Both the position numbers and the translations under genes were made by a program. 64,000 bases of DNA from the NCBI GenBank assembly GCA_022561875.1, contig JADFQJ010000003.1:56397-120396 (forward strand). Direction: 5' to 3'. The notes beneath the pieces were generated by a model, which worked only from the letters and a program-made list of their open reading frames with translations, was not told the origin of the DNA and did not search any database. Positions within the stretch are counted from its first letter, which is position 1. Each line of letters begins with the position of its first letter. Positions 11,829 through 14,368 of the stretch are shown piece after piece. Source of the DNA: Bacteroidota bacterium (GTDB lineage: Bacteria; Bacteroidota; Bacteroidia; Bacteroidales; VadinHA17).

Positions 11829-11843
11829 AATAATAAAAAAAAT

Positions 11844-11983
11844 CAGTCGGCAGTCAACAGTCGGCAATTTGCAATCGGTAGTCAACAACTGGTAGTAATA
11901 AAAAGAAAACAATTATAAAATAATAAAAAACGGGAAAAATCACATTAAAATTACACAGTCTTCTGTTTGCCGACTGCTGACTG
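11844..11983. repeat. heptad array (CAGTCGG type) with an inverted partner about 100 nt away
   Basis: 11844-11899 reads CAGTCGG CAGTCAA CAGTCGG CAATTTG CAATCGG TAGTCAA CAACTGG TAGTAAT. TTGCCGACTGCTGACTG at 11967-11983 is the reverse complement of CAGTCAACAGTCGGCAA with one mismatch. Confidence 0.85.
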
Positions 11984-12083
11984 AAGATTGCAGACTTAAA
12001 AATACAAAGTATAATAAGATTAGCCATTTTAGGCATTACAAACTTACGACACTGAATATTTATAAAATTTTAAACACAACATT

Positions 12084-12767
12084 ATGAGCATTATAGAGAT
12101 TAAAAACCTGACAAAAATCTATGACGGTTCTGGCTTTGAGGTAAAAGCCGTTAACGGAATTAACCTGAGCTTTGAGAAGGGAGAATTTGCTGCTATAGTT
12201 GGTCCTTCAGGCTCTGGAAAAACCACACTGCTTAACATGCTGGGAGGATTAGACCATCCAACCTCAGGCGAAGTGATTGTTGATGGTCAGAATATCTGGA
12301 AACTTAAGTCCAGGAAATTAACTGATTTCAGGTTGTACAACATTGGCTTCGTATTTCAGGCATATAACCTTATACCTGTGCTGACAGCAAAAGAAAATGT
12401 AGAGTTTATTATGCACCTGCAGGGCAGAAGCAAGAAAGAACGCGACAGCCGTACCAGGGAACTGATGCAGGCTGTCGGACTTGAAGAACGAATGAACAGC
12501 CGTCCGTCTAAGTTGTCCGGGGGACAACAGCAAAGAGTTGCTGTTGCACGCGCACTGGCATCTAAACCAAAATTTATCCTGGCTGATGAACCAACAGCTA
12601 ACCTGGATTCAAAGTCAACGGAAACTTTACTTGATATAATGGAACACCTTAATAAAGAAGAGGATATCACTTTTATATTTTCCACTCACGATGCCAGGGT
12701 AGTGAAGAAAGCCAGAAGAGTTATTACCATCGAAGACGGGAAAGTTAAGTCTGATGAGGTACGGTAA
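12084..12767 (+). CDS. ABC transporter ATP-binding protein (LolD/MacB-type)
   Basis: Walker A GPSGSGKTT, signature LSGGQQQRVAVARAL, Walker B ILADEPT. Confidence 0.95.
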   Translation: MSIIEIKNLTKIYDGSGFEVKAVNGINLSFEKGEFAAIVGPSGSGKTTLLNMLGGLDHPTSGEVIVDGQNIWKLKSRKLTDFRLYNIGFVFQAYNLIPVLTAKENVEFIMHLQGRSKKERDSRTRELMQAVGLEERMNSRPSKLSGGQQQRVAVARALASKPKFILADEPTANLDSKSTETLLDIMEHLNKEEDITFIFSTHDARVVKKARRVITIEDGKVKSDEVR

Positions 12768-12795
12768 TGTCATGTTAACATAATAATATTGTAAA

Positions 12796-12970
12796 GTTGG
12801 CAAAATGCAAAAGGCAGTTGGCAAATTGGAAAGGATAGTTGGTAAAATGCAAAAGGCAGTTGGCAAATTGGAAGGATAGTTGGCAAGAATGCAAAGAGCA
12901 GTTGGCAAATTGGAGGCAAATTGCGGAAAACAGTTGGCAAAATTGCAATTGGTAAAAGGTAAAATAAATT
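12796..12970. repeat. 42/41-bp tandem repeat (about 3 units plus a degenerate tail), each unit built from six NNNNGCA-type heptads
   Basis: Unit 1 at 12796-12837 is GTTGGCAAAATGCAAAAGGCAGTTGGCAAATTGGAAAGGATA. Unit 2 is 12838-12878. Unit 3 starts at 12879 and decays towards 12970. Confidence 0.9.
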
Positions 12971-12992
12971 TCAAATTGCAAAAACAGGAAAT

Positions 12993-13202
12993 ATGGCTGG
13001 AAGTTTTAGGGATTTAACAGTTTTTAAAAAAGCATTTGCTTTGTCAATGGATGTTTTTAATATTATAAATAAATTCCCTTCCAAAGAAAAGTTTGAATTA
13101 ACAGACCAAATCAGAAGATCCTCCCGTGCTGTTTGTCGGGCAATTGGAGAAGGGTATAGAAAACGGCAATATCCAAAACATTTTTCAAGTAAAATGCTTT
13201 AA
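12993..13202 (+). pseudogene. four-helix-bundle protein (23S rRNA intervening-sequence protein family), C-terminally truncated
   Basis: FRDLTVFKKAFALSMDVFNIINKFPSKEKFELTDQIRRSSRAVCRAIGEGYRKRQYPKHF matches the N-terminal half of this family. It has only 69 codons, and its stop lies 2 nt before the next ATG. Confidence 0.6.
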
Positions 13203-13204
13203 AC

Positions 13205-14368
13205 ATGAAATCCTACCGGTCAGTTATACTGATATTTATACTCTTCATGCTTGTTAACAGATCTTTTGCACAAAACAATTTTTTTTCTTTCAAAGGGTAC
13301 CTTAGCAATATGCAGACAGTTATGTTTGAAAAGATTGATGAAAACTGGCTTTCAGATCATTTAATACATAACAGACTGAATTTCAAATGGTATATTTCTG
13401 ATAACGCTACTGCCACTGTAGAAATGAGAAACCGTTTTATTTATGGTGATTTTATGAAAATAATTCCCGGGTATAGCGCTATAATCGAACAGGATCAGGG
13501 GTGGATGAATTTATCCGTCAACCTGCTGGAAGAGAATTCATTCTTATTGAACAGTAACATCGATCGTGCATATCTGGATTTATTTTTCGGGAAATTGCAA
13601 ATACGGACAGGCAGGCAGCGGATCAACTGGGGGCGGACCTTTGCCTGGAACCCTAATGATATTTTCAATGCGTATTCGTTTTTCGATTTCGATTATGTTG
13701 AAAAACCGGGAAGTGATGCCGTTCTCGTACAATATTATACGGGATTTTCATCCGTTGCGCAGGCAGCTGTGAAAATCGACAGAAATGATAAGGTTACTGC
13801 AGCCGGTCTTTTCCAATTCAATAAATGGGGATATGATTTTCAGTTCCTGGGCGGAATATTAAACAGTGATGACTGGGTAATAGGTGCAGGATGGGAAGGA
13901 GATATCAGTGGCGCCGGGTTTAGAGGCGAAATGAGCTGGTTCCGGGCGAAAGATAATTTTTCAGACACCTCCGGAACCATTATGCTCTCTCTTTCAGGGG
14001 ATTATACGTTTAAAAATTCTTTGAATATCCGGACTGAATTCTTGTATAACGGTTTCGATCAGACAACATCTGGTTTCAGCGATTATTATTTTCAGACACT
14101 TTCGGTAAAAAATATTTCATTTACTGATTATTCCGTTTTTACCGGGATATCTTATCCTTTTAACCCCCTTTTTAACGGAAGTTTTTCTTTCATGCTGTTT
14201 CCTTCCATGAATGGTTATTATATCGGGCCTGATCTGAGCCTGTCACTGACTGATAATATGGGTATTTCATTTATCCTGCAACATTTCAGCGGAGAATTCA
14301 CTGAAGGAACCAGGGAAAAACTGACGTTTGCATTCCTGCGATTAAAATGGAGTTTTGCAAAAAAATAG
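13205..14368 (+). CDS. hypothetical outer-membrane protein (probable beta-barrel)
   Basis: Signal peptide (LFMLVNRSFAQN) and an aromatic-rich alternating pattern throughout. Last gene of the ABC cluster. Confidence 0.55.
   Translation: MKSYRSVILIFILFMLVNRSFAQNNFFSFKGYLSNMQTVMFEKIDENWLSDHLIHNRLNFKWYISDNATATVEMRNRFIYGDFMKIIPGYSAIIEQDQGWMNLSVNLLEENSFLLNSNIDRAYLDLFFGKLQIRTGRQRINWGRTFAWNPNDIFNAYSFFDFDYVEKPGSDAVLVQYYTGFSSVAQAAVKIDRNDKVTAAGLFQFNKWGYDFQFLGGILNSDDWVIGAGWEGDISGAGFRGEMSWFRAKDNFSDTSGTIMLSLSGDYTFKNSLNIRTEFLYNGFDQTTSGFSDYYFQTLSVKNISFTDYSVFTGISYPFNPLFNGSFSFMLFPSMNGYYIGPDLSLSLTDNMGISFILQHFSGEFTEGTREKLTFAFLRLKWSFAKK

Follow-up and report, generated by a model that had tools for sequence, protein, structure and literature searches.

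A truncated four-helix-bundle gene beside a 42-nt heptad array in a Bacteroidota genome: probable remains of an inserted cassette with inverted array arms

Why does a tandem array of seven-nucleotide words stand directly upstream of half a gene, and why does that half gene end two nucleotides (nt) before the next start codon? These questions are raised by a locus at positions 12795-13204 of the window, the whole stretch of 64,000 nt analysed here (contig C61, positions 56397-120396, of a 2.77-Mb, 104-contig Bacteroidota assembly from marine sediment with 38% G+C, hereafter G000; C-numbers denote its contigs and G001-G006 its congeners). The truncated gene belongs to the four-helix-bundle family of 23S rRNA intervening-sequence (IVS) proteins (PF05635, TIGR02436) and lies between an ABC-transporter ATPase gene and a gene for an exported protein. 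Comparison of the same junction among congeners, and of the other family members in G000, suggests that the locus is very probably the decayed 5' half of an inserted cassette, in which a full gene was enclosed by a word array and its reverse complement. The inverted array pairs that enclose the gene, and the loss of one arm at this locus, were overlooked by the initial annotation.

The array was called by Tandem Repeats Finder at 12795-12914 with a period of 42, 2.9 copies, 91% matches and a score of 203; a period of 21 was also called, the heptad phase being preserved. The 42-nt unit consists, as initially described, of six in-phase heptads (AGTTGGC, AAAATGC, AAAAGGC, AGTTGGC, AAATTGG and AAAGGAT), and past the repeat degenerate GGCAA/GCAA words extend to about position 12990. 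The open reading frame (ORF) at 12993-13202 has 69 codons and a C-terminal end reading YPKHFSSKML; its TAA stop at 13200-13202 and the next ATG at 13205, 2 nt on, likewise agree with the initial annotation. Profile searches place the ORF in the family proposed at the outset, the match to PF05635 scoring 59.7 bits (cut-off 33.8, E 3.7e-16) and covering positions 1-62 out of 106, and that to TIGR02436 scoring 49.6 bits (cut-off 24, E 3.8e-13) and covering positions 1-58 out of 109. A full-length member covers about 106-109 positions and four helices; the window ORF falls short of this, and the missing part is present at the orthologous site of G004, where the first 203 nt of a full-length copy are 90.7% identical to the part surviving in the window. 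Judged from the sequence, the ORF is evidently a genuine member of PF05635/TIGR02436 that has been severed near its middle. A PDB sequence search with the truncated protein gave a single match, XCC0516 (2gsc, E 0.003), which fits the family and is silent on function.

The adjacency of the ATPase and exported-protein genes is kept in all 16 related genomes examined, with spacers mostly of 10-90 nt, and in 28 of 41 relatives an orthologue of the exported protein comes after the ATPase gene; outside the genus, none of the 16 genomes has a four-helix-bundle gene at this junction. Within the genus, the junction was found in five states. In G002 and G001 it is empty, the spacer measuring 17-19 nt (TAATTGAATTAAAGCTTTAAAC followed by the ATG, and a near-identical 17-nt form), and these sites hold neither array nor gene, whereas the filled sites hold both. 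The G004 junction carries a complete unit made of two 42-nt 5'-arm units, the whole gene (ending ...YPKHFSSKMSDADMENTETQVSLDFAKDCKYISQEEYMELINKSEEVGRMLNHMVKNPEKYRPK and the stop) and a 3' arm, ATTGCCAACTGCTTTTTGCCAACTGCCAACT, which is the reverse complement of the GTTGGCA-type 5' arm. When this unit is folded as RNA, the 5' arm pairs with the 3' arm around the gene, at -133 kcal/mol and a z score of -4.4 against shuffles. Both arms are retained in G003 and G005, with the gene reduced to its last ~25 codons, while in G000 the 5' arm and 68 codons are retained. Since the empty site is devoid of repeats, the arms arrived together with the gene. Insertion of the gene into a pre-existing array hairpin was considered for this site and rejected, as the empty site has no array.

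The G006 junction (L006, 1128-1345) contains an unrelated hairpin insert of ~215 nt with its own inverted repeat, CGAACAAGGATTAACGATTT...AAATCGTTAATCGGTGTTCCTTGTTC, and for several small elements the ATPase junction is apparently a hot spot.

The abrupt truncation had been taken for a deletion scar, a view that the junction alignment bears out. At the breakpoint the G004 gene reads ...CATTTTTCAAGTAAAATGAGCGATGCAG (continuing ...AGTAAAATGAGCGATGCAG) and the window reads ...CATTTTTCAAGTAAAATG joined to CTTTAAACATG. In the 3' flank of G005, the 3' arm is followed by ATTTTGATTAAATTATTG, AGTAAAATGCTTTAAAT and the ATG, and a contig from run X4, a sample that also contains the window's own sequence, has the near-identical AATTTGATTAAATTATTG immediately before window position 13188. 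The pattern common to the two is 3' arm - A(A/T)TTTGATTAAATTATTG - AGTAAAATGCTTTAAA(C/T) - ATG, and these flank copies indicate that the 3' flank once contained AGTAAAATG as well. Deleting from one 9-nt copy of AGTAAAATG to the other yields the window sequence exactly. Lost in this deletion, which spans ~250 nt or more from the copy in the gene to the copy in the 3' flank, were helices 3-4 together with the 3' arm and a portion of the spacer, and the ORF became fused to the TAA of the native spacer. Gene-derived sequence stops at 13196 and the in-frame TAA comes from CTTTAAAC (13197-13204); the stop lies 2 nt before the ATG because this TAA belongs to the native motif, which also occurs at the empty sites. 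Short direct repeats (GAAGAATA / AAAGAATA) bound the deletions of G003 and G005 as well, and the deletion in the C81 paralogue is bounded by the direct repeat AAAACA. With the full cassette in a congener at the same site and the 9-nt direct repeat at the junction, the truncation is a deletion scar, produced by microhomology-mediated deletion. The features of the locus are collected in Table 1.

Table 1. Features of the truncated cassette and its surroundings (positions in the window)
Feature	Position	Strand	Evidence
ABC-transporter ATPase gene (LolD/MacB-like), upstream host	12084..12767	+	PF00005, E 1.2e-36; TAA at 12765-12767
5' junction segment TGTCATGTTAACATAATAATATTGTAA	12768..12794	+	Congeners carry TTGGAAGAATA; junction alignment of G000, G003, G004 and G005
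Cassette 5' arm, 42-nt higher-order unit (GTTGGCA / AAATGCA / AAAGGCA words), 2.9 copies	12795..12914	+	Tandem Repeats Finder
Degenerate tail of 5' arm and leader to start codon	12915..12992	+	Aligns with leaders of the G004 copy and of paralogues C81 and C33
Four-helix-bundle gene, surviving 5' part, 68 codons	12993..13196	+	PF05635 1-62/106, TIGR02436 1-58/109
Deletion junction AGTAAAATG	13188..13196	+	9-nt word in the gene (codons S-K-M), recurring in the 3' flank of undeleted alleles
Native spacer remnant CTTTAAAC	13197..13204	+	Identical motif before the ATG at the empty G002 and G001 sites
Gene for the exported protein of 387 aa, a putative outer-membrane protein; downstream host	13205..14368	+	ORF; no family match
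Gene-less cassette derivative, preceding spacer	11843..12063	+	Arm words, leader and tail as in the C15/C26/C36 copies

The neighbours of the truncated ORF are genes for the ABC ATPase, the exported protein and a GMC oxidoreductase. The 387-aa exported protein has an N-terminus that, judged by eye, resembles a signal peptide, and a profile search gave it no Pfam or NCBIfam match.

The surviving arm differs in length among the congeners, with about 1.3 units in G005, 2 in G004, 2.3 in G003 and 2.9 plus the degenerate tail in G000. A contig of a closely related strain from run X6, a different metagenome, skips positions 12797-12975, so that the whole 5' arm is gone, and its ATPase part matches the window in all but 2 of 297 letters. 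Heptanucleotide simple sequence repeats (SSRs) are recognised as intergenic head-to-tail 7-nt units whose number varies among relatives, and the window array has these properties. To judge from these homologous arms, the 42-nt array is a higher-order slippage product of the cassette 5' arm and is still changing between strains; the arm, now unpaired, varies by whole 42-nt units.

The association of word array and gene is also observed elsewhere in G000, which has 13 PF05635 loci, five intact and eight truncated, interrupted or fragmentary. Each intact copy has an upstream array of heptad or octad words, which recur downstream in reverse complement, and the arm words recorded for the cassettes are GCAAGAC, AGTAAGA, GGCGAxG, CTGGTTA, TTGACTA, GTTGGCA, CAGTCGGCA and GTGCCTAAA. 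The arms were assessed by aligning the 160 nt upstream of a gene to the reverse complement of the 160 nt downstream, with 1,488 genes as controls (median 8.5, 99th percentile 14.5). All five intact copies and two of the eight broken ones score 13.5-25, which places seven of the 13 loci beyond the 98th-99th percentile of the controls; the window copy, with a score of 8.0, has no 3' arm. Among the 30 best PF05635 genes, all intact, recovered when 61 genomes from the bacterial family of G000 were searched, 25 score at or above the control 99th percentile, and their arm words vary save for a few recurring word families. The initial annotation had seen in the window locus a physical link between word arrays and this gene family. 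The genome-wide examination extends it, as paired arrays accompany every intact copy in G000 on both sides, and 25 of the 30 in relatives; a physical and evolutionary link of the word array with the four-helix-bundle family is supported by these sequence comparisons. Intact members free of arrays, which by the initial annotation would have spoken against the link, were thus not the pattern observed.

The placement of the cassettes is also regular. Twelve of the 13 copies in G000 are oriented as the downstream gene, and in all five simple cassettes (the C61 site of the window, C5:22412, C2:27390, C98:23049 and C82:8378) the 5' arm begins 0-5 nt past the upstream stop, the stop codon itself falling within the array in the C98 cassette. 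Such a start just past the stop codon may reflect either a target preference or the sole tolerated insertion point in tight junctions. The C61, C81 and C33 loci have GTTGGCA arms and gene DNA in common, and C81 and C33 additionally share an outer inverted repeat, GTGTCGTGTCAA...TTGACAAGACAC.

Some further arrangements of this kind were noted in G000. Contig C31 begins (1-280) with a partial tandem duplication upstream of the intact C31 four-helix-bundle copy, comprising the 5' 90 nt of the gene and its GCAAGAC arm. Two GxxExxY (TIGR04256) genes, at C98:26562-26939 and C16:3799-4170, lie within inverted word arrays (CTTTGCG/CGCAAAG and CACAAAG/CTTTGTG) with arm-test scores of 20.5 and 17.5, and GxxExxY looks like a second cargo family of the same architecture. 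At C18:67340-68270, genes for tRNA-Leu(CAG) and tRNA-Leu(GAG), confirmed by ARAGORN, have GATGAAT arrays, and the reverse complement of such arrays, between them and on their outer sides; at least the second tRNA gene is within an inverted heptad pair, which recalls a processing stem.

According to the history favoured here, an ancestor within the genus gained a unit of ~550 nt in the tight 17-19-nt junction between the ATPase and exported-protein genes. The unit consisted of a GTTGGCA-type 5' arm, a full PF05635 gene and a reverse-complement 3' arm, and was subsequently broken in different ways in each lineage. The 69-codon remnant is very probably non-functional, and the downstream exported-protein gene is presumably expressed through operon read-through. 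Intact cassettes may be co-transcribed with the host operon, their arms pairing as a stem of ~30-35 bp around the gene, like the ORF-bearing 23S rRNA IVS that are cut by RNase III. By analogy with these, a role of the arm stem in RNA processing of the RNase III type is tentatively proposed; G000 encodes RNase III at C35:13921-14568 (176 bits). Mobility of the cassettes as a unit, at present or in the recent past, is more probable than not, movement possibly occurring via DNA hairpins or carrier MITEs (miniature inverted-repeat transposable elements).

Several observations weigh against this account. The full gene of G004 has a 1-nt deletion near codon 18, either real or an assembly error. A tree of the flanking genes (the ATPase gene and 273 codons of the next gene, 1.5 kb) has bootstrap support that is too low and a root that is unreliable owing to a long outgroup branch, so that one gain followed by precise losses and repeated gains are indistinguishable on it. 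The metatranscriptome of the matching sample gave only a 40-nt weak match, to the conserved part of the ATPase. No movement enzyme was identified for the cassettes, and the TAATT(R) on both sides of the unit in G003 and G004 may be due to chance in AT-rich DNA. Moreover, an outer inverted repeat encloses C81 and C33, MITEs with GTAACTAWTCAGT ends enclose the C15 and C8 types, and such carrier elements, rather than the cassette itself, may be behind some of the duplications.

Turnover was also examined at two further junctions. The C5 site is filled in G000 only; it is empty in G004 and G001 and occupied by unrelated arrays in G002 (L074), which consist of a 28-nt unit of four heptads present three times and ACCCGTA words, unpaired. 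No relative of the C5-type protein above 55% identity was found among 60 genomes of the family. The C2 site is filled in G000 and empty in G001, carries the 5' GGCGA arm alone in G006, and has another array in G005 (L082), an unpaired and unrelated GTTACTG repeated 4.5 times; like the C5-site spacer of G002, this spacer is empty in sister species. Unrelated arrays in otherwise empty spacers imply that arrays can arise without a four-helix-bundle cassette.

Of the CAGTCGGCA and GTGCCTAAA types, numerous copies with internal deletions lie inside elements whose ends are GTAACTAWTCAGT. Derivatives of the CAGTCGGCA type (G000 C36:46850-47100, C41:19400-19700, C12:65450-65750, C2:16500-16760, C86:81600-81780 and C48:4700-4890) retain a small hairpin (TCCCGATAAATCGGGA) and, of the gene, the first ~12 codons, the last ~25 or both, and by their sequences they seem to behave as non-autonomous MITE-like copies. 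The window has one gene-less derivative in the spacer preceding the ATPase gene, where a CAGTCGGCA-type 5' arm and a leader are followed, with the gene missing, by the complementary 3' arm and by a MITE-like tail that ends in CACTGAATA. With this derivative on one side and the truncated cassette on the other, the ATPase gene stands between two cassette remnants.

The arms could instead be used as DNA by a recombinase or transposase acting in trans, as hairpin or terminal-repeat substrates, the cassette being a passenger-carrying MITE moved by a REP/RAYT-like or IS200/IS605-like enzyme or by the mover of the local MITEs. Of the features by which MITEs are recognised, the cassettes show inverted arms, three copies sharing arms, filled and empty sites at three junctions and a possible TAATT(R) duplication, with no transposase identified. 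The multi-copy derivatives with internal deletions speak in the same direction, as do the cassette types nested in elements with GTAACTAWTCAGT terminal repeats and the presence of an IS200-like gene in G000 (C6:40667-41119). However, the simple cassettes are without a linked transposase, the arm words vary by cassette type, which is hard to fit to one sequence-specific enzyme, and the co-orientation of 12 of the 13 copies with host transcription is what an RNA-level role predicts. A DNA-level role of the arms is considered rather unlikely as the explanation, and is not exclusive of the RNA-level one, the two being compatible with each other.

The gene at C6:40667-41119, which encodes an IS200/IS605-like (RAYT-like) transposase, is flanked by a long structured inverted repeat with the top score of the arm scan (29). 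This transposase is a candidate for an enzyme acting in trans on G000's hairpin elements.

If cassettes decay in the manner favoured here, the word patches elsewhere in the genome might be their remains, as suggested in the initial annotation. In the 2.77 Mb of G000, Tandem Repeats Finder detected 1,396 arrays with periods of 6-9 that do not overlap. A decay series from intact through truncated and fragmentary copies to gene-less arm pairs (C48, C83, C75 and window 11843-12063), the solitary 5' GGCGA arm of G006 at the C2 site, and the use of some abundant words (AACCAGT, AAAGTGCCT, ACTGCCG and AAGAAGT) as arm words are in favour of the suggestion. Remains of the gene were recovered, however, at about 25 loci (the 13 HMM loci and ~12 DNA fragments of 27-76 nt) against the 1,396 arrays, and the commonest word, AACCCGT, has no cassette in G000. 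Only ~20 arrays form inverted same-word pairs within 500 bp, and within 3 kb inverted and direct same-word pairs number 38 and 50, respectively, although pairing based on Tandem Repeats Finder underestimates short arms. As inverted pairs are no commoner than direct ones, the arrays are in general unpaired, and different arrays appear de novo at otherwise empty spacers. It is therefore improbable that most heptamer patches of G000 are four-helix-bundle cassettes after gene loss. The suggestion holds for the ~25 loci, and most of the arrays show no such remains; to judge from the sequence, a minority of the patches are cassette remains, among which an orphan arm can pass for a free array, as at the window locus and the C2 site of G006.

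A functional role of the 69-codon ORF, as a short protein or as a leader translationally coupled to the exported-protein gene, has in its favour an open frame, an ATG start and a stop 2 nt before the next start. It is nevertheless very hard to credit, as the stop belongs to the native spacer and precedes the ATG at the empty sites also, the junction is that of a repeat-mediated deletion, folding of half a four-helix bundle is unlikely, the gene is disrupted in other and incompatible ways in sister species, and the empty sites indicate that the downstream gene needs no such leader. A mere coincidence, by which an ordinary small gene came to stand beside a slippage-made heptamer array, might be suspected in a genome so rich in short-period arrays, some of which arise alone in spacers that are empty in sister species, yet it has next to no probability and is largely refuted by the filled and empty sites of the window junction, by the control distribution, in which ~1% of genes reach the arm scores seen with the reverse-complement array downstream of intact copies, and by the paralogues that have arms as well as gene in common.

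The inserted-cassette history brings together two puzzles, the role of the 23S rRNA intervening-sequence proteins and the excess of 7-base tandem repeats in bacteria. One orthologous junction records the life history of a cassette, as empty site, full unit, two independent deletion products and a strain without the arm. The series shows that the arms arrive with the gene, that cassettes decay via short direct repeats, and that an arm left orphaned can last and grow into what looks like a free-standing word array. It offers a concrete and testable origin for at least some heptamer arrays, and a natural series for work on stem processing and mobility. More speculatively, and with considerable doubt, PF05635 and apparently GxxExxY genes with inverted heptamer arms might form one widespread class of insertable hairpin cassettes that land, in operon junctions that are transcribed, just past stop codons. 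Once microhomology deletions had orphaned the arms and slippage had expanded them, they might be a major seed of the 7-nt repeat excess in bacterial spacers, and the protein may act on its own arms.

Among known systems, the heptanucleotide SSRs are the first to be compared. Heptanucleotide repeats named STRR were reportedly described in cyanobacteria by Mazel et al. in 1990, and an excess of heptamers in prokaryotes is said to have been noted by Mrazek et al. in 2007. Like these, the present arrays are intergenic tandem 7-nt units of a length that varies among relatives. Inverted pairs are also found in Xanthomonas, where GGGAATC arrays include 70-75 convergent pairs, with no gene named (Rehm et al. 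2015, PMC4692102). Unlike in the reports on heptanucleotide SSRs, the arrays described here are the arms of a unit that carries, and arrives with, a PF05635 gene.

The closest parallel is provided by the IVS in helix 45 of the Coxiella burnetii 23S rRNA, which has an S23p ORF enclosed by a stem of 28 bp, a tandem of three GACAGAT heptamers ahead of the start codon, their number varying among strains, and a 176-bp deletion of the ORF in one strain; its excision by RNase III has been demonstrated, and it is discussed as perhaps having once been a mobile element (Warrier et al. 2016, PMC4990558). The cassettes resemble it in the PF05635/S23p gene within complementary termini (a stem of 28 bp there and ~30-35 bp here), in the tandem heptamers of strain-variable copy number upstream of the start codon and in the decaying ORF. 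With regard to the stem of ORF-bearing IVS, the G004 copy folds at -133 kcal/mol and the intact paralogues are paired, the window copy scoring 8.0. They differ from the Coxiella IVS in that the cassette lies between protein genes of an operon and outside any rRNA helix (25 or 45), in that both arms are wholly heptad arrays, one of which the window copy has lost, and in that excision by RNase III, shown there, is for the cassettes a supposition. The window locus as a 23S rRNA IVS was ruled out by its position between the ABC-ATPase and exported-protein genes. A full-text literature search returned no paper in which PF05635 is connected with inverted heptamer arrays at ordinary gene junctions, the link being described, in the library searched, for the Coxiella rRNA IVS alone. 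Genes annotated 23S_rRNA_IVP have been noted inside cas operons (Zhang et al., PMC3936711).

Avd, accessory protein of the diversity-generating retroelements (DGRs), belongs to a fold family with detectable similarity, seen as a weak match to NF033474. An Avd/DGR identity was rejected, the match reaching 19.6 bits against a cut-off of 80 with no adjacent reverse transcriptase. The cassettes are like MITEs and REP/BIME elements in being short, non-autonomous, multi-copy units of spacers bounded by inverted repeats, with filled and empty sites and internally deleted derivatives. They are unlike both in that the cargo is a conserved protein gene which is not a known transposase, and in that the arms are copy-specific tandem arrays instead of one conserved terminal repeat.

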